Source: Acidobacteriota bacterium (GTDB taxonomy: Bacteria; Acidobacteriota; Thermoanaerobaculia; Multivoradales; Multivoraceae). From it: a stretch of 64,000 nucleotides of DNA. Each line of letters starts with the position of its first letter. Position 1 is the first letter of the stretch. Position numbers and translations under genes: made by a program. Location of the stretch: the NCBI GenBank assembly GCA_011525365.1, contig WTGQ01000002.1, forward strand, positions 473,064-537,063, given 5' to 3'. Under the pieces are notes generated by a model, which saw only the letters and a program-made list of their open reading frames with translations, had not been told where the DNA came from and made no database searches. Below, piece after piece: positions 11,417 to 51,544 of the stretch.

Positions 11417-11522
11417 TCGCGCAAGCCAGGCGCGCGGAAGGCTGGCCCTGCCGAGAGCACGGGGCGGGAATCGGGAAGTAGTCGCATCCGATCGGTGTTT
11501 GGCGGTAGCGGGAGGAACGCCG

Positions 11523-12635
11523 ATGCCAGAACTTTCCTTTGACCACTTCGACTTCACGGATGACTTCGGTCCCGAGAAGGTCGTTACCGTCTACGAACCC
11601 CGCTGCGGCCTGGAGGGGATCGTCGTCATCGACAACAGCGCCGCCGGACCCACGATGGGCGGCATCCGCATGGCGCCGGACGTCAGCGTGGAGGAGGTGT
11701 GCCGGCTGGCGCGGGCGATGACCTGGAAGAACGCCATGGCGCGTCTGCGCCACGGCGGCGGCAAGGCGGGCATTCGGGCGAATCCGCGGACGGCGAACCG
11801 TGAGGCCCTGATCCGTCAGTTCGGCCGCGCGATCCGGCAGTTGACGGACTACATTCCCGCCCCCGACATGGGCACGAACGAGACCGCGATGGCCTGGATT
11901 CGCGACGAGGGGGGCCGCTCCGTCGGCCTGTCCAGGTCTCTCGGCGGGATTCCGCTCGACGAGAGCGGCTCGACCGGCTTCGGCCTCGCCATCGCCGCCG
12001 AGGTGGCCGAGGAGGCGGGCGTCGTCGCGCTCGAGGGCGCCACCGTCTCCATCCAGGGCTTCGGCAACGTCGGGAGGCCGGCGGCCCGGTTCCTGGCCGA
12101 GCGGGGCGCTCGCCTCGTGTCGGTCACCGATCTCGACGGCACGATCCACGACCGGGACGGCATAGACATCGACGAGCTCGTGGCGACGATGGATGCGACC
12201 GGCGGTGTCACGGGGTATCCGCGCGGCCACACGGTCGAAGGCGACGCCTTCCTGGACCTGGAAGTCGACTTCTTCGTGCCGGCCGCGCGCCCCGACGTGA
12301 TCGACAGCGGCAACGCCGGCCGCGTCGGCTGCAAGGTGGTGCTTCAGGGCGCGAACATCCCGGTGACCGCAGCGGGCGAACGGATTCTCCACGACCGCGG
12401 CATCCTCTCGATTCCCGACTTCGTGGCCAACGCCGGCGGCATCATCTGCGGCGCGGTCGAGTACGCGGGCGGCTCCGAGCGGCAGGCGTTCGAGAGGATC
12501 GAGGACACGGTGCGCCAGAACACGCGGGAAGTGCTGGACCTGGCCCGGACCGAAGGCTGCCTGTTGCGCGAGGCGGCGATGAGCATTGCCCAGCGCCGGG
12601 TCTCGGAAGCGATGGCTTTCCGCCGAGCCGACTGA
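11523..12635 (+). CDS. Glu/Leu/Phe/Val dehydrogenase family (glutamate dehydrogenase-like)
   Basis: The catalytic Lys-Gly region 'RHGGGKAGIRANP' is present, with the NAD fold 'QGFGNVG' and 'ANAGGI'. A GGAGGAA RBS lies upstream of the ATG. Confidence 0.88.
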   Translation: MPELSFDHFDFTDDFGPEKVVTVYEPRCGLEGIVVIDNSAAGPTMGGIRMAPDVSVEEVCRLARAMTWKNAMARLRHGGGKAGIRANPRTANREALIRQFGRAIRQLTDYIPAPDMGTNETAMAWIRDEGGRSVGLSRSLGGIPLDESGSTGFGLAIAAEVAEEAGVVALEGATVSIQGFGNVGRPAARFLAERGARLVSVTDLDGTIHDRDGIDIDELVATMDATGGVTGYPRGHTVEGDAFLDLEVDFFVPAARPDVIDSGNAGRVGCKVVLQGANIPVTAAGERILHDRGILSIPDFVANAGGIICGAVEYAGGSERQAFERIEDTVRQNTREVLDLARTEGCLLREAAMSIAQRRVSEAMAFRRAD

Positions 12636-13632: not shown

Positions 13633-14682
13633 ATGACCCTCGACTCCACGAGTGGCGGCACGTCTACGGTCGCGGTCAGCGACCGCCTCGGCCGGCCGGT
13701 GCGCGACCTGCGCATCTCGGTCATCGACCGCTGCAACTTCCGCTGCACCTTCTGCATGCCCGCGGACCGGGAGTACAGGTTCCTGCCCCGGCAGCAGTTG
13801 ATGACGTTCGAGGAGATCGAGCGCCTGGTCCGGCTGTTCGTGCAGCTCGGTGTTCGCAAGCTGCGGCTGACGGGCGGCGAACCGCTGCTGCGGCGGGACA
13901 TTGAGGATCTGGTTGGGCTCCTGTCCGCGGTGCCGGGAGTCGAGGACCTCGCCCTGACGACGAACGGCGCCCTGCTGGCGAAGAAGTCCCGGGTGCTTGC
14001 CGAGGCCGGCCTCAACCGGGTGACCGTCAGCGTCGAGTCCCTGCACGATGACGTCTTTGGTCGCGTCACAGGATTGGGCCACGGCGTCGGCCAGGTGCTC
14101 GAAGGCATCGACGCCGCGGCGGACGCCGGCCTCGGCCCGGTCAAGATCAACACGGTCGTCATGAAGGGAACGAACGAGGACGAAGTCGCCGACATCGCGG
14201 GCTACTTCAAGGAGCGCGGCCACATCGTCCGCTTCATCGAGTTCATGGACGTCGGCACGGTGAACGACTGGAGCCTCGACCAGGTCGTCACTGCCTCGGA
14301 GATCGCTGACCGCATCGCCGAACGGTGGCCCTTCGAACCCGTCGACCGCGCCCAGCGCAGCGACGTCGCCGAACGCTTCCGCTACCTCGACGACGGCGTC
14401 GAGTTCGGCGTCATCCCCTCGATCAGTCGCCCTTTCTGCGGCGACTGCGCCCGGGCCCGCCTCTCCTCCGACGGCCGGCTCTACACCTGCCTCTTCGCCG
14501 ACACCGGACCCTCGCTGAGGGACCGCCTCCGCGCCGGCGCCACGGACGACGAGCTACTCGCCTTCCTCGCCGCCCACTGGCGCCAGCGCGAAGACCGCTA
14601 CTCCGAGGTCCGCGCCGAACGCCTCCGCGCCGGCCTGCAGCCGGCTCCCCAGCGCGTCGAGATGTTCCGCATCGGCGGCTGA
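13633..14682 (+). CDS. moaA: GTP 3',8-cyclase MoaA (radical SAM)
   Basis: It has the CNFRCTFC radical-SAM cluster motif and the C-terminal CGDCARAR second-cluster motif. Full-length MoaA architecture. Confidence 0.93.
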   Translation: MTLDSTSGGTSTVAVSDRLGRPVRDLRISVIDRCNFRCTFCMPADREYRFLPRQQLMTFEEIERLVRLFVQLGVRKLRLTGGEPLLRRDIEDLVGLLSAVPGVEDLALTTNGALLAKKSRVLAEAGLNRVTVSVESLHDDVFGRVTGLGHGVGQVLEGIDAAADAGLGPVKINTVVMKGTNEDEVADIAGYFKERGHIVRFIEFMDVGTVNDWSLDQVVTASEIADRIAERWPFEPVDRAQRSDVAERFRYLDDGVEFGVIPSISRPFCGDCARARLSSDGRLYTCLFADTGPSLRDRLRAGATDDELLAFLAAHWRQREDRYSEVRAERLRAGLQPAPQRVEMFRIGG

Positions 14683-14892
14683 GCCGCGCGTCGGCGAAGC
14701 GACCCCCTGGGCACCCCTCCCCCCGGTCCCGCCGCGGGCTGGGCGTCGTCGACGTTCGTCACACGGACTGCCGGTGCGCCGGCCTTCTGGCCGGCTTCTG
14801 GAGCCGCGGGAACATGCAGAGATCGAGTACCCTCGCCGCTTCACGGACGGGCCGTGGTCTGAACTGCGCCTGGCAGAGTAGGGGATCGCAAA

Positions 14893-16481
14893 GTGCAGAA
14901 CCGGTACTTCGGCGACGTAGGCGACTTCGGAAAGTACGGCCTTCTCAGGAGGATCTGTGGCGTTAGCGCCGAGGACGCCGGTGAGGTGCTTTCCCTCGGA
15001 GTCGTCTGGTACCTCGTGGATGACGAGAACCACAACAAGGATGGTAAGCACACCACCTACCTCGATAAGCCTGAGGAGTACCGCGACTGCGATCCTGCGC
15101 TGTTCGACGGTCTGAAGAGTCTGCTCGAAGGGCCGGGTCCACGGGCCGTGAGCAAGATCGAGCGCTCAAGTCCGGAGCTTCTCCCGCATGGCACGAAGTA
15201 CGTCAGCGAACCTCTGACGCGCGAGGGCCGATCGGAGTGGCTCAGTCGGGCGATCGAGGAAGTTCGCGATCGTGATGTCGTCTTCCTGGATCCCGACATC
15301 GGGTTTCAGCCACCGTCTGTGCGGGCGGACAGCAAGAGCGCCGTCCAGTACGTCCTGTGGAAGGAGGCTGAGCGATTTGCTGAATCTCATCAGCAGCAGA
15401 CTTTGGTCTTCTACCATCACCTGAATCGCACGAAGGCCTGGCCGGATCAGATCGACGAGAAGATCCACGAGATTGGTTCGAGGGTCGCTGGGGGTGACGC
15501 CGCGGTACCCGTGCTGTTCAAGAGGGGTACAGGGCGAGTCTTCTTCGTGGTGCCGTCCGCCAAACACCGCGACTTGGTGACATCCCGAGTTCGTAGCATG
15601 GCTGAGAGTCCTAGTTGGAGGCGGCACTTGGGGATTGGCGCTGCGAAGAAGAGGGCCCGGACAGTTAAGGCGAACGGTCTCGTGCGGGTGGGCACCTGGA
15701 ACGTGGAGTGGGCGAAACACGGCTCCCTGAAGGCCAGACGGATTGAGCCGATCCTCGCGGCACCTGATTGCGATGTCCTCTGTGTGACGGAAGGAGGAGA
15801 CGCGGGCATCCTCCCCAAGAGCGGCCATGTGATCGACGCCGGTACGGATTGGGGCTATCCGATACCGAAGGCCAGTCCGGGGCGCAGGAAGGTGTTGCTT
15901 TGGAGCAAGCATCCGTGGACTCCTGTCTTCGAGCCCGGACAGCAAGACCTACCCGGAGGAAGGCTTGTGGCAGGTGTGACGGAGACCCCGATCGGGCGGC
16001 TCACGGTTGTGGGTATCTGCATTCCGTGGGGTGCGGCGCACGTAAGCAGCGGTCGTAGAACAGAAAGCGGTGGGAGGACCATCGCGCCTGGCTCACAAAG
16101 TTTGCAGATCTCGCCTACGCGAGAGCGCCGTCTCGGACGGTCGTGCTGGGTGACTTCAACCAGCGGATTCCGAGAAAGTCTGCGCCGGTGGGCGTGCACG
16201 GCGAGCTCTTGAAGGCCTTTGGGGGTCTGAGTACTGCGACCGAGGGGTTCTTCCAGTCGCCGTACCCGGCAGATGACTCCGGCGGTCCTTGGCAGGCTTC
16301 GTTGTCGGACGTGGCTTCCGCCGAGGAAATGCCCCAGTTCATCGACCACATCGCGCATTCGACGGATTTGGTCCTGGCCGAGCGAGCCGACCGGCGCGTT
16401 GGCGTCTTCCCGAAAAGGGTCAAGCCGGGCGACGGACTCCCGGATCACTTTGGGGCTTGGGTCGATCTCGCTGGGCGCTGA
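14893..16481 (+). pseudogene. Frameshifted two-domain gene: an uncharacterised N-terminal domain (~245 aa, motifs YFGDVGDFGKYGLL and VFLDPDIGF) fused to a C-terminal endonuclease/exonuclease/phosphatase (EEP) domain
   Basis: The EEP motifs are split over two frames. 'LVRVGTWNVEW' and 'VLCVTEG' lie in the 14893..16212 frame. 'VVLGDFNQ' and the terminal 'PDHFGAWVDL' (catalytic His) lie in the 16143..16481 frame. Homology continues right after a stop at 16056-58 in the second frame. A single missing base in the A-run near 16063-16066 would restore 'HVSSGRRTEKRWEDHRAWL'. GC and codon usage are clearly lower than in neighbouring genes. Confidence 0.6.
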
Positions 16482-16587
16482 CGGAGAAGGCGAGGGCTTT
16501 CTCGTCTAGATCCGTAGAGGGACGTGGCTGCGGCGGGTCCCGCCTCCAAGATCTTCACGCTGAACCGACTGTTAGGCTCCAACCCAA

Positions 16588-16854
16588 ATGACGACCTTCG
16601 ACACGCTTGCGGCGGCGCGGACTCTCGAAGGTGCCGGCATGGATCCGGCGCAGGCAGCAGCGGTGACCGAGACGATACGGTCCGCCGCAACGGAGGGGGT
16701 CGCGACTCGATCCGACTTGGCCGAGTTGCGCGGCGATCTGGCCGAACTACGCGGCGATCTGGGCGCGATGGAGGCTCGTCTCACGTGGCGCATGGTGCTC
16801 GTCGCCGGCGCAGTCACGGCCTTGGTTACCGCGCTGGATCGCCTGCTCGGTTGA
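16588..16854 (+). CDS. Small coiled-coil protein with a C-terminal transmembrane anchor (DUF1640-like)
   Basis: 88 aa. It contains a tandem heptad 'LAELRGD LAELRGD' followed by a hydrophobic tail 'MVLVAGAVTALVTALDRLL'. GC3 is high, consistent with coding. Confidence 0.5.
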   Translation: MTTFDTLAAARTLEGAGMDPAQAAAVTETIRSAATEGVATRSDLAELRGDLAELRGDLGAMEARLTWRMVLVAGAVTALVTALDRLLG

Positions 16855-17071
16855 GCACTTCGAGACCGCTCTCTTCGAGAACGCGGTCCATGATCCCCTG
16901 CTCACAGCAGCCCTCGATGAACAGGGCCAGAGCCTCCTGCAGCATGGTCATCGCTTCTTCGGCCGTGGAGCCTTGGCTGGCTACGTGAAGCTGTGGACAC
17001 GAGGCGACCCATGCGTCCCGCTCGCGGTGCAGTTTCGCGGGAAGTTCGTAACTGAGGTCGGTGCAGATCAC
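16826..17071 (-). CDS. HicB-like (UPF0150) antitoxin-family protein, no cognate HicA detected
   Basis: 'DAWVASCPQLHVASQGSTAEEAMTMLQEALALFIEG' matches the HicB N-terminal RNase H-like fold. A perfect AGGAGG RBS sits 6 nt upstream of the GTG at 17069-71. Its 3' end overlaps the convergent small ORF by about 29 nt. Confidence 0.65.
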   Translation of the reverse strand: MICTDLSYELPAKLHRERDAWVASCPQLHVASQGSTAEEAMTMLQEALALFIEGCCEQGIMDRVLEESGLEVLNRAGDPAR

Positions 17072-17248
17072 GCAGCACCTCCTGGGGGCGGGATGCAACC
17101 TAGCACGCGGCTGGTGTGGTGTCGGGACCACGTCCCAGTGGCCGCTTCGGGCGGGTCTCACGGAAGCCGCATCCGACCGTGAACGCTCCACTTACGCGAA
17201 TTCCGGTACAGTGCCGCGCATGTGTAGCCGCAAGATCGGGGCGGTCGC

Positions 17249-18292
17249 TTGAGTACCCGTCCGCTGCTGGCGGCGGCGGAGGGTGAGCGGGACCGCAAGG
17301 CCGAGCACATCCGGCTGGCGCTGGATCGGCGCATGCAGGTCGAGCGCAGCTACTTCGACGACTACCGGTTCGAGCACAGGGCGCTGCCGGAGATCGACTT
17401 CGACGACGTCCGGATCGGCTGCGGCTTCCTGGGACGGGAGCTCGAGGCGCCGCTGCTCATCTCGTGCATGACGGGGGGGACCGGCGCCGCGGAGGAGATC
17501 AACCGCCGCCTGGCTGAGGCGGCCGAGGCGAGGCGGGTCGCTCTCGGCGTCGGCTCGCAGCGCAAGGCGATCGACGATCCGGAGACCGCGGCGACGTTCC
17601 GGGTGCGGGAGTTCGCTCCCAGCGTGCCGATCCTGGCCAATCTGGGCGCGGTGCAACTGAACTACGGCTACGGCATCGACGAGTGCCGCGTGGCGGTCGA
17701 CATGATCGAGGCGGACGCGCTGGTGCTGCACCTGAACGCGCTGCAGGAGGCGCTGCAGCCGGAGGGGCAACTGAACTTCCGCGGACTGCTGCCGAAGATC
17801 GCTCGCGTGGTCGAAGCACTGGACGTGCCGGTGGTGGTCAAGGAGATCGGTTGCGGCATCTCGGCCACTGTCGGCCGGCAACTCGCCAACGTGGGCGTGC
17901 GGATCCTCGACACGGCCGGCGTCGGAGGCACGAGCTGGGCGCGGATCGAGGCGGCCCGGGCCGATGAGGTGGCTCTCGGCGAACGCTTCGCCGACTGGGG
18001 GGTGCCGACGCCGGAGTCGATCCGCCAGTTGGCGGCGGTGCCCGGCGTCCAGGTGATCGGCAGCGGCGGCATTCGCTCCGGCGTCGACGCGGCGAAGGCG
18101 CTGGCCCTCGGCGCCGACGTCGCCGGTATGGCATTCCCGTTCCTGGAGGCTGCCAACGCGTCGACCGAGGCGGTCGTCGACCGGATCTCCCGCACCGCCT
18201 TCGAGCTGCGTACGTGCATGTTCTGCACCGGCGCGGCCGACCTCACGGCGTTGCGCCGCGTGCCGCTCCTGAAGGAGACGGGCGATGGCTGA
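17249..18292 (+). CDS. fni: Type 2 isopentenyl-diphosphate delta-isomerase (FMN-dependent)
   Basis: An FMN-binding TIM-barrel enzyme with typical IDI-2 blocks 'ISCMTGGTGAA', 'NLGAVQL' and 'GSGGIRSGVDAAKALALGAD'. Confidence 0.9.
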   Translation: MSTRPLLAAAEGERDRKAEHIRLALDRRMQVERSYFDDYRFEHRALPEIDFDDVRIGCGFLGRELEAPLLISCMTGGTGAAEEINRRLAEAAEARRVALGVGSQRKAIDDPETAATFRVREFAPSVPILANLGAVQLNYGYGIDECRVAVDMIEADALVLHLNALQEALQPEGQLNFRGLLPKIARVVEALDVPVVVKEIGCGISATVGRQLANVGVRILDTAGVGGTSWARIEAARADEVALGERFADWGVPTPESIRQLAAVPGVQVIGSGGIRSGVDAAKALALGADVAGMAFPFLEAANASTEAVVDRISRTAFELRTCMFCTGAADLTALRRVPLLKETGDG

Positions 18293-49065: not shown

Positions 49066-49731
49066 GTGAACATTGGTGGCACGTTCTGGAAGTTGATGAA
49101 CGAGGGCGGCCCCGTCATGTGGCCATTGCTCGCTTTCTCCGTCATCGCGGCAGCGGTGGTGGTAGAGCGACTGATTGCGCTGCGACGGGCTCGGATCAAC
49201 GTTCACGAGTTCCTCCCCAAGGTGCGGAAGGCGCTGGTCGTGAACCGGTCGATTCGTGAAGCGGTCAAGGTATGCGAGGAGTACCGCGGTCCGGTCGCCT
49301 CGATCCTCAAGGCCGGTCTGATGAAGTACGGCCAGCCCAAGGAAGACGTCGAGAAGACCATCGAGAACGCGGCGCTGTTCGAGATGGGCCGCCTCGAGCG
49401 CGGCCTCGCGGTGCTGGCGACGACGGCCAACGTCGCCCCGCTGCTCGGGTTCTTCGGCACGGTTACGGGCATGATGGCCGGCTTCGACGCCCTGGCGGCA
49501 CAGGGTCTGTCGAACCCCGGCGCGGTCGCCACCGGCATCAAGGAGGCGCTGACCACGACCGCAGGAGGTCTCGCGGTCGCCATTCCGACCCAGTTGGCCT
49601 ACAACTACTTCATGAGCCGGATCAACAAGTTCGTCCGCGACATCGAGACCTCGGCGAACATGCTGCTCGAGACGTTCGGCGAGATGGAGCGCAGCGGCAT
49701 CCCGCCGGAGTCCGGCGGCGACGCCGGCTAG
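49066..49731 (+). CDS. exbB: MotA/TolQ/ExbB proton-channel family protein
   Basis: Three TM helices. 'LLGFFGTVTGMMAGF' and 'GLAVAIPTQLAYNYF' are ExbB/TolQ signature blocks. Confidence 0.9.
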   Translation: MNIGGTFWKLMNEGGPVMWPLLAFSVIAAAVVVERLIALRRARINVHEFLPKVRKALVVNRSIREAVKVCEEYRGPVASILKAGLMKYGQPKEDVEKTIENAALFEMGRLERGLAVLATTANVAPLLGFFGTVTGMMAGFDALAAQGLSNPGAVATGIKEALTTTAGGLAVAIPTQLAYNYFMSRINKFVRDIETSANMLLETFGEMERSGIPPESGGDAG

Positions 49732-49766
49732 CGGGCGTTCTTCCGGTTTCAGCCGAGTAGATCGAC

Positions 49767-50195
49767 ATGAAGCTCAAGGCAACCATCGAACACAAGCCGA
49801 ACATCCCGACGGCGTCGATGGCGGACATCGCCTTCCTGCTGATCATCTTCTTCATGCTGACGATCACCTTCGAGGTCGACAAGACCCAGGTGCAGTTGCC
49901 GAAGACGACGCTCAGGTACGAGATTCCGAAGCAGTCCGCCTACGTCTCGATCGATCCGAACGGGCGCATCCGGGTCTCCGACGGCACCGAGCAGAGCGCC
50001 CTGGTCAGCGCGGCCGACGAGGTTCTCTCGATGGCCGCGGGCGTCATCGCGATGGATCCGACGAAGGTCTTCGTCGTCAAGTCCGACGGCAACGTGACGT
50101 GGGACAAGGTCGACGAGGTGATCGACGCCTTGAAGCGGGCCAAGGTCCGGGACGTGTACCTGCTGTCGGATCAGGTGACGGTCGACGACCTGTAG
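49767..50195 (+). CDS. exbD: ExbD/TolR biopolymer transport protein
   Basis: 'MADIAFLLIIFFMLT' is the N-terminal TM helix, followed by a periplasmic domain. Confidence 0.9.
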   Translation: MKLKATIEHKPNIPTASMADIAFLLIIFFMLTITFEVDKTQVQLPKTTLRYEIPKQSAYVSIDPNGRIRVSDGTEQSALVSAADEVLSMAAGVIAMDPTKVFVVKSDGNVTWDKVDEVIDALKRAKVRDVYLLSDQVTVDDL

Positions 50196-50270
50196 GTTTG
50201 ACGAGGCGCTGTAAACTCGAAGAGGTGAGGGGATCAGAAACCCGATGCAGCGGATGGATGGAGGCGCAAG

Positions 50271-50708
50271 ATGAGACTTGACCGTGATCGCCCGGACGAT
50301 GAAATCCCGACCTCGTCGATGGCGGATATCGCCTTCCTGCTGATCGTCTTCTTCATGGTGACGACGACGTTCACCGCGACGCGTGGACTGGACTTCGCGC
50401 TTCCCGAGGACGACGACGATCCGCCGGTGGTCGAAAAGGAGGAATCGGTGCTGGTCGAGATCCTGCCGAGCGGCGAGTTGATCGTCGACCAGGATCCGAT
50501 GCCGTTGCACGAGATCATCCCCTACCTGAAGCCGAAGCTCGAGCGGAACCCGAAGAAGCCGGTGATCATCCGCCCCGATACCGCGACGCCGTACCGCTAC
50601 ATGGTCGAGGTCTACGACGAGCTGCGCCAGTGGGAGGACTACGGGCTGGAACAGCCGATCAACATCTCGGTTCCCACCCAGCGCGAGATCCAGAGCTTCT
50701 GGTACTAG
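50271..50708 (+). CDS. exbD: ExbD/TolR biopolymer transport protein, second copy
   Basis: 'MADIAFLLIVFFMVT' TM helix. Paralogue of the upstream gene. Confidence 0.88.
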   Translation: MRLDRDRPDDEIPTSSMADIAFLLIVFFMVTTTFTATRGLDFALPEDDDDPPVVEKEESVLVEILPSGELIVDQDPMPLHEIIPYLKPKLERNPKKPVIIRPDTATPYRYMVEVYDELRQWEDYGLEQPINISVPTQREIQSFWY

Positions 50709-50800
50709 AAGTCGGAATAGGCCGAGACCGGCTGGACGTTGAACTCAGACATACGCGACAGAACACCTGACCGAGAACCTGACCGAAGAGGGGTAACCGG

Positions 50801-51544
50801 ATGAGTGACGAGAACCTCGAACAGGCTGCATCCCCCGCGGAGGAGCCCACGAAGGACGAACCGACCGCGCTGACCTCCGCTGAACAGGGCCTGCTGACCT
50901 ACGTGCAGGAGACCCGCGAGGACAACAAGACGTTCCGCTACTCGTTGGGGCTGGCGGTCATCCTGCACGGGATCCTGCTGATCGTGAAGCTGCCCGACCT
51001 GTACGGCGACACAGTGGCGCCGCCGCCGAAGCCCAAGGTCTTCGTCGTGCAGCAGGTGCGCTTCAAGCCGCCGCCGCCGAAGGAAGAGCAGCAGATTCCG
51101 AAGCCGAAGTCGAAGAAGGTTCCGATCCCCGATCCCACGCCCGACGAGCCGGAGCCGATCCGGATCGACGAGCCTGAGGAGATCGACATCCCCGAGGTCG
51201 ACGATCTCGATCTCTTCGACCTCCCCGAGGCGCCGCCTCCGCCGGAACCGACCGGGCCGATCTACGTCACCGGCGACGTGACGAAGCCGGAGAAGATCAA
51301 CGAGATCCAGCCCCAGTACACCGAGATCGCGCGCAAGGCGCGGATCCAGGGTGTCGTCATCCTCCAGGCGACGATCGACAAGAACGGCGACATCACCGAC
51401 ATCAAGGTTCTGAAGCCTCTGCCGATGGGTCTTGCCGAAGCCGCGGTGTCGGCGGTGCAGCAGTGGAAGTTCAAGCCGGCGACGCTGAACGGCAAGCCGG
51501 TCGCCGTGTACTACAACCTGACCGTCAACTTCCAGCTCCAGTAG
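50801..51544 (+). CDS. tonB: Energy transducer TonB
   Basis: A TM anchor is followed by a Pro/Lys/Glu-rich spacer (PPPKPKV...) and a TonB C-terminal domain '[33 protein letters not shown]'. Confidence 0.85.
   Translation: [247 protein letters not shown]

Follow-up and report, generated by a model that had tools for sequence, protein, structure and literature searches.

Two groups of described proteins stand closest to the gene analyzed here. RlmJ (23S rRNA m6A2030 methyltransferase) and Legionella LPL1258 (PDB 6qe5, 2oo3) resemble its N-terminal domain in predicted fold, with only ~10% sequence identity, and the Exonuclease III/AP-endonuclease branch of the EEP proteins (PF03372; PDB 2voa, 1ako), together with the uncharacterized EEP protein 4ruw, is nearest to its C-terminal domain. 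The gene lies in a 64,000-nucleotide (nt) stretch of DNA from an uncultured member of the Acidobacteriota (contig WTGQ01000002.1, positions 473,064 to 537,063; here called the window), in an interval whose left and right housekeeping flanks are moaA (13633 to 14682) and type-2 idi (17249 to 18292). It is split by a frameshift and shares the interval with two small genes, one for a coiled-coil protein of 88 amino acids (aa) and one for a HicB-like protein of 81 aa. We conclude that the moaA-idi interval is probably an old, lineage-specific accessory slot that holds a recently inactivated two-domain enzyme and two separate small genes, and not an operating three-gene module. The same locus occurs in related metagenome-assembled genomes (MAGs), and the loci compared below are designated L001, L095, L099, L100, L101, and L105. 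Names carried by proteins of the same 90%-identity clusters assign the organism to Acidobacteriota/Holophagales MAGs.

The two-domain gene starts after a spacer (14683 to 14892) that follows the moaA stop codon. It is covered by two open reading frames (ORFs) in the ORF list, 14893 to 16212 (439 aa) and 16143 to 16481 (112 aa), which are one gene in two frames. A reading made earlier from the sequence alone had called 14893 to 16481 a frameshifted gene with a C-terminal EEP domain, and both statements were confirmed. Frame 1 reads ...GICIPWGAAHVSSGRR, and frame 0 goes on with NRKRWEDHRAWLTKF and then LGDFNQ; joining the frames at ~16057 gives a repaired protein of 529 aa. Alignment with DNA of L099, L100, and L001 placed the lesion within 16054 to 16062 on the plus strand. 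It is a deletion of 1 nt at ~16057 to 16060, where the window reads CGT-A-GAAC and the intact orthologue sequences of L099 and L100 read CGTAGGGAC and CGCAAGAAC. At least six independent assemblies (ENA, JGI, Logan) share the 4,660 nt from moaA to idi with 100% identity, and the frameshift is therefore not an assembly error. Inspection of the sequence revealed no slippery heptamer at the frameshift site. The frameshift is real and recent. Because the deletion splits the EEP domain, which no uninterrupted reading frame spans in the window, EEP activity has been lost in this genome, and the largest product that remains is a 439-aa protein with an intact N-terminal domain.

The EEP domain itself is readily recognized once the frame is restored. 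Residues 267 to 494 of the repaired 529-aa protein matched Pfam PF03372 (Exo_endo_phos) with 47.6 bits against a gathering cutoff of 24.5, compared with 25.6 bits over residues 267 to 348 for the unrepaired 439-aa ORF. The repaired domain has the four-layer alpha/beta sandwich of EEP proteins and their catalytic N, E, D/N, D, and H motifs, and its structural model is closest to DNA-acting ExoIII-type enzymes. Three-frame translation assigns the linker and the 5' part of the domain (Pfam residues 267 to 348) to 15643 to 16058 on the plus strand, in the frame of the N-terminal domain up to the frameshift. The 3' part occupies 16059 to 16481 on the same strand in the shifted frame, carries the motifs LGDFNQ, IDHIAHS, and PDHFG, and ends at the stop codon at 16479 to 16481.

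The N-terminal domain (N-domain; residues 1 to 250, 14893 to 15642, plus strand) contains the motifs MQNRYFGDVGDFGKYGLL and VFLDPDIG. The sequence-only reading could assign it to no family. This is right as far as named families go: a hidden Markov model check for a known housekeeping family in Pfam and NCBIfam matched the N-domain to none, and it is not an RlmJ member at the sequence level, the repaired fusion having no Pfam match besides EEP at E ≤ 10 and no NCBIfam match at E ≤ 1. The N-domain had no match in PADLOC or PHROGs either, and a profile search of the PDB gave chance matches only (E ≥ 0.48). Its fold can be assigned after all. Structural modeling predicts an RlmJ-like class-I S-adenosylmethionine-dependent methyltransferase fold, with an N6-adenine methyltransferase as the closest enzyme. 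The domain differs from RlmJ in motif IV, which is (D/N)PP(Y/F) with an aromatic residue in RlmJ but FLDPDNG, without the aromatic, in the family of the N-domain and FLDPDIG in the window. Unlike the role of RlmJ, the genomic contexts of this family are unrelated to ribosome biogenesis.

The family comprises 1,194 clusters of homologues. Of the best 120 listed, almost every one is a stand-alone protein of ~257 aa that has no name or is labeled "hypothetical protein," and at least 555 genomic matches are spread across Dehalococcoidia, Alphaproteobacteria, Acidobacteriota, Firmicutes, and archaea. Conservation is strong, with the motifs MQNRYxGDxGDFGKYGLLR, FLDPDNG, YHH..R, and RG..R.FF, and D133, P134, D135, and G137 are invariant. 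The window N-domain retains all 32 of the 32 family-invariant residues, has Ile at the nearly invariant N136, and is missing a segment of ~16 residues. Homologues were found in none of 50,697 cultured-phage records, and the three plasmid matches are all annotated as hypothetical.

An intact copy of the fusion is present in L105, where a 532-aa orthologue (P0282) occupies the same moaA-idi slot and aligns with the repaired protein in a single alignment over residues 1 to 526 at 68% identity. Of the best 150 listed in a search of 1.84 billion representative proteins, P0282 alone is a full-length fusion; among these, the intact RlmJ-like-EEP fusion amounts to one 50%-identity cluster. The two-domain enzyme is found only in this clade. 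In the other relatives, the gene is broken or reduced. L001, at 91% amino acid identity, lacks 22 nt of the EEP domain at the same spot as the window break, and in L100 the N-domain is frameshifted at about residue 160 and the EEP part is intact. L099 has lost the N-domain and kept an intact 280-aa EEP gene, while L095 retains only two remnants of the fusion, which match window positions 15292 to 15499 and the 3' end from 16457. In the more distant L101, the order is moaA, the 88-aa gene, a stand-alone EEP gene (278 aa), and idi. The frameshift common to the window and L001 was considered as proof of shared descent or of programmed shifting and was rejected, as the lesions are deletions of 1 nt and 22 nt that give the same frame offset. 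The ratio of nonsynonymous to synonymous substitutions (Ka/Ks) was 0.13 to 0.43 for segments of the fusion, compared with 0.03 to 0.14 for moaA, idi, HMGR, and NUDIX. This indicates that purifying selection acted during most of the divergence and that the losses came recently and independently. Since either domain has been lost while the other is intact, the pattern also argues against a strict dependency of the toxin-immunity or restriction-modification kind.

The slot has an unusual base composition. Gene-by-gene values of GC content at third codon positions (GC3) are 0.72 to 0.75 in all genes of this islet versus 0.90 to 0.91 in NUDIX, moaA, idi, and HMGR, and total GC is 0.60 to 0.64 versus ~0.70 in the flanks. 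Composition is thus not uniform, and the earlier statement that the fusion gene uses less GC-biased codons than its flanks holds. The only other patch of the window with a similarly low GC content, an exbB-exbD-exbD-tonB operon (49066 to 51544), has a GC content of ~0.62 owing to the amino acid composition of membrane proteins and not to foreign codon usage; its GC3 remains high (0.88 to 0.95), so that the unusual codon usage is peculiar to the islet. Slot genes of all relatives, intact ones included, likewise have low GC3 (0.72 to 0.79), so the anomaly is old and was not produced by decay. Pseudogene decay was rejected as its cause, given that intact orthologues and the strongly conserved 88-aa gene are equally low in GC3. 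The left edge of the slot is at ~14704, as collinear homology with L095 stops at 14703 (blastn). The hallmarks of a mobile genomic island, namely, an integrase or transposase, a tRNA target, and flanking direct repeats, do not accompany it: in the identical assemblies, the genes called up to ~5 kb from the islet include neither an integrase nor a transposase, the 64-kb window contains no tRNA gene, and the only repeats bounding the slot are short ones at chance level. An Rfam scan of the islet detected no RNA element.

The 88-aa gene (16588 to 16854, plus strand) encodes a DLAELRG heptad repeat followed, in the hydropathy profile, by a hydrophobic C-terminal segment at residues 66 to 84, in agreement with the coiled-coil protein with a C-terminal anchor that had been proposed. 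DUF1640/CCDC90-like small coiled-coil membrane proteins have the same architecture, a coil and then a C-terminal hydrophobic anchor. The match to this Pfam family (PF07798) covers the N-terminal 36 residues only and, with 23.7 bits (E = 5e−5), falls below the cutoff of 33.5, while phrog_17872 is matched over the full length (E = 3.4e−9). A phage origin of the gene was considered and rejected, as it has no relative in IMG/VR. The gene is present in every relative examined (L095, L099, L100, L101, and L105), and its Ka/Ks against the first four of these is 0.06 to 0.09. It is the conserved resident of the slot and is itself strongly conserved.

The HicB-like gene lies on the minus strand at 16826 to 17071, convergent to the 88-aa gene, which it overlaps by the 29 nt reported earlier. 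Its actual start is a GTG codon at 17071, which gives 81 aa, and an AGGAGG ribosome-binding site, read from the sequence (CCTCCT on the forward strand, 17078 to 17083), lies 6 nt upstream of the GTG. This gene had been described as convergent and HicB-like with an AGGAGG site and no HicA partner, and all of this stands: the 177 nt from its start to idi (17071 to 17249) hold no suitable ORF for HicA. No HicA-like gene is annotated beside the HicB-like homologues of the relatives in the gene tables, in which unannotated small ORFs were not screened. The protein matched phrog_497 (HicB-like) with E = 4e−7; its Pfam scores, 27.4 bits for DUF7387 (cutoff 27.9) and 18.9 bits for HicB_lk_antitox (cutoff 27), are both below threshold. 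Compared with HicB antitoxins, this single-domain protein is too short to contain the C-terminal DNA-binding domain. The L099 homologue is 83% identical and has the same convergent overlap, those of L105 and L100 are 71 to 73% identical and lie on the opposite side of the 88-aa gene, and L095 and L101 have none. Overall, 4 of 6 relatives have the HicB-like gene. Ka/Ks for the homologues of L099, L105, and L100 is 0.22 to 0.26. Purifying selection thus acts on this gene as it does on the 88-aa gene, and the two are separate small occupants of one slot.

Relatives carry further genes in the same interval (L100:7201-8912; L105:10529-11104). They include a 73-aa paralogue of the 88-aa coiled-coil membrane protein, a 71-aa ORF whose N terminus, MKRASVSETKNNLSGLL, is Phd/YefM-like by eye only and matches no family, and, in L100, a 451-aa protein with a weak match to the restriction endonuclease family Mrr_cat (E = 0.009). 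On the basis of this extra cargo, the interval is a variable accessory slot.

The genomic surroundings of the N-domain elsewhere were surveyed at 82 loci, with 5 kb on either side of each gene. Outside the clade, none of the 82 N-domain genes lies beside an EEP gene or a homologue of the 88-aa gene, and HicB-like genes occur near one, L018. There, on a contig of a Desulfitobacteriia MAG (JBMNGP010000027.1; L018:9041-10583), three tandem HicB-like ORFs ~700 nt apart follow just downstream of a stand-alone N-domain homologue, and a second homologue lies ~10 kb off on the same contig (L017). About 70% of the family members stand alone among varied housekeeping genes. Among the immediate neighbors, a short PurA/PurZ-like gene was found at 26 loci and a gene with the dCTP-deaminase fold at 24. 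These two kinds of neighbor accompany ~30% of the family members, often joined by a P-loop nucleotide kinase, and in Alphaproteobacteria some of the clusters contain an additional protein of 640 to 800 aa with RNase_H_2, DUF429, and kinase assignments. Examples are L007:5856-8765, L011:5943-9396, and L082:6576-11691, and the cluster was also seen in L002, L008, L012, L013, L015, L020, L023, L026, L036, L045, L046, L060, L065 to L068, L072, and L075; its cultured carriers include Methylobacterium mesophilicum R14E and Bradyrhizobium sp. C9. The PurA-like protein resembles archaeal short PurA and PurZ most closely but scores below the NCBIfam cutoffs for both. In types of enzyme, these operons are similar to the PurZ/archaeal-type short PurA clusters of the phage 2-aminoadenine pathway, with its logic of MazZ, PurZ, and a kinase, but they are chromosomal in Dehalococcoidia and Alphaproteobacteria. 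The combination of PurA/PurZ-like, dCTP-deaminase-fold, and RlmJ-like genes is not in PADLOC, and a full-text literature search returned nothing relevant on adenylosuccinate synthetase or PurZ with dCTP deaminase or on RlmJ gene neighborhoods. The islet of the window has no PurA/PurZ-like, dCTP-deaminase-like, or kinase gene.

Sixteen IMG/VR contigs carry an N-domain homologue, adjoining either terminase or portal genes or Macro, McrBC, and GmrSD genes; on none of the 16 is it next to a PurA-like or dCTP-deaminase-like gene. On two of these contigs (L108:4982-6699 and L120:987-2804), the first 3 to 13 nt of the N-domain homologue are shared with a gene for a Macro-domain protein of 338 to 362 aa, an operonic arrangement.

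The sequence-only reading had placed the three genes of the window among loci of the kind in which uncharacterized defense or toxin modules are found. In an active module, the nuclease fusion would act as effector with the small membrane protein as its partner, and the HicB-like protein would serve as antitoxin or regulator. Atypical codon usage, tight gene packing, the co-residence of the three genes in the window, L099, L100, and L105, and the weak Mrr-like gene in the L100 slot would all fit such a module. We nevertheless regard it as quite improbable. The EEP domain is broken in the window and the fusion has decayed in most relatives, and a search of PADLOC-DB v2 at E ≤ 1 gave no match for the repaired fusion, the 88-aa protein, the HicB-like protein, or a stand-alone N-domain protein (P0010). 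The suggested check for co-occurrence across genomes was also negative: the 88-aa gene is present regardless of the other two, persisting by itself in L095 and beside a stand-alone EEP gene in L101, and the HicB-like gene is missing from both of these relatives and changes position in L100 and L105. The equally suggested survey of N-domain neighborhoods agrees, with linkage at 0 of 82 loci elsewhere. A fusion that works like a restriction-modification system, in which methylation by the RlmJ-like domain would shield host DNA from the attached EEP nuclease, is unlikely as well. The predicted closeness of the N-domain to an N6-adenine methyltransferase and of the EEP model to DNA-acting enzymes favors it, as does the state of the window gene, in which the nuclease is lost and the methyltransferase-like part kept, the usual route of decay for restriction-modification genes. 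On the other side, L099 and L101 have an intact EEP gene without the N-domain and L100 combines a broken N-domain with an intact EEP part, from which it follows that the EEP enzyme is not self-toxic without the N-domain. The family motif, DPDNG, also lacks the motif IV aromatic of DPPY, and the stand-alone majority among housekeeping genes counts against this reading too.

A further alternative holds that the frameshift is programmed, or that two polypeptides are made, and that the locus still yields a working EEP enzyme. L001 does have an equal net frame offset at this position, the part downstream of the break has a Ka/Ks below 1 (0.30 to 0.43), and GC content is still highest at the third codon position in both parts of the gene. 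We find this alternative very unlikely, the least probable of those weighed here, because L099, L100, and L105 read through the site in one frame, the window lesion is a plain 1-nt deletion without a slippery heptamer, that of L001 is a different one, and the EEP fold is cut between its catalytic motifs. The horizontal acquisition proposed from composition has fared unevenly. The atypical codon usage on which it was based is real, with GC3 of 0.72 to 0.75 versus 0.90 in the flanks and the window's lowest-GC 1.6-kb stretch in the islet. A recent arrival as a fresh genomic islet is improbable, as the same genes, in the same slot and with the same low GC3, intact copies included, are found in relatives at a synonymous divergence (Ks) of 0.2 to 0.5, and the slot has no tRNA genes, bounding repeats, or called integrase or transposase. 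A better fit is an acquisition long ago or a set of weakly expressed genes that evade the GC3 drive of the genome.

An old accessory slot with an inactivated enzyme and two separate small genes therefore remains our preferred explanation, and several observations weigh against it. Inside the clade, the slot keeps the EEP gene together with the 88-aa gene and, in most cases, the HicB-like gene, and these genes may be functionally linked. The same slot carries toxin-antitoxin-like and restriction-like cargo in relatives, and the Macro, McrBC, and GmrSD genes that adjoin some viral or prophage homologues of the N-domain fit a part in host-parasite conflict. Costly defense or toxin genes, moreover, also typically undergo repeated, independent inactivation.

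For the substrate and chemistry of the intact enzyme, we infer only an outline from the two predicted folds. The substrate would be a nucleic acid or a nucleotide, in which the RlmJ-like N-domain might bind or modify a base and the C-terminal domain, as an ExoIII-like, Mg2+-dependent EEP phosphodiesterase, could cleave a phosphodiester or phosphomonoester bond. As a mechanistic guess, the enzyme would then be a phosphodiesterase tethered to a base-binding or base-modifying domain. A broader proposal, which we offer tentatively and think possible but doubtful, is that a nucleotide or DNA base-modification pathway, so far undescribed, has the N-domain family as its signature enzyme; the grounds for this proposal are the operons in which the family repeatedly joins a PurA/PurZ-like synthetase, a protein with the dCTP-deaminase fold, and, at many loci, a nucleotide kinase. 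The fusion of this clade would be a derived version that couples the modifying or recognizing domain to a phosphodiesterase for a conflict-related function, and its repeated inactivation would reflect the cost of carriage.

Two observations concern the surroundings of the slot. A gene for a Glu/Leu/Phe/Val (ELFV) dehydrogenase (window ~11500 to 12635), with a second AhpC-like gene upstream, lies a few kilobases from the islet. This dehydrogenase gene and one of the two AhpC/Redoxin genes upstream of NUDIX-moaA are found in the window strain and L099 and not in L095, L100, L101, or L105, and the difference is a second presence/absence polymorphism near the islet. In relatives (L095:1-417; L105:517-1143), genes for a small MT-A70-family (PF05063) methyltransferase, a DUF2277 protein, and an adenosine deaminase are located ~6 to 7 kb upstream of moaA.

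For the biology of the host, the locus matters little, being a decaying accessory gene. The slot is a clean case of long-lasting low GC3 and warns against equating atypical composition with recent transfer. What the locus exposes is a rare architecture, an RlmJ-like methyltransferase fold joined to an ExoIII-like EEP domain, and, through it, a large and widespread unnamed family outside Pfam, NCBIfam, PHROGs, and PADLOC. The recurrent PurZ-like, dCTP-deaminase-like, and kinase neighbors of this family suggest unexplored nucleotide or DNA modification chemistry. The more interesting lead is thus outside the window, in the unnamed RlmJ-like family and its recurrent cluster.

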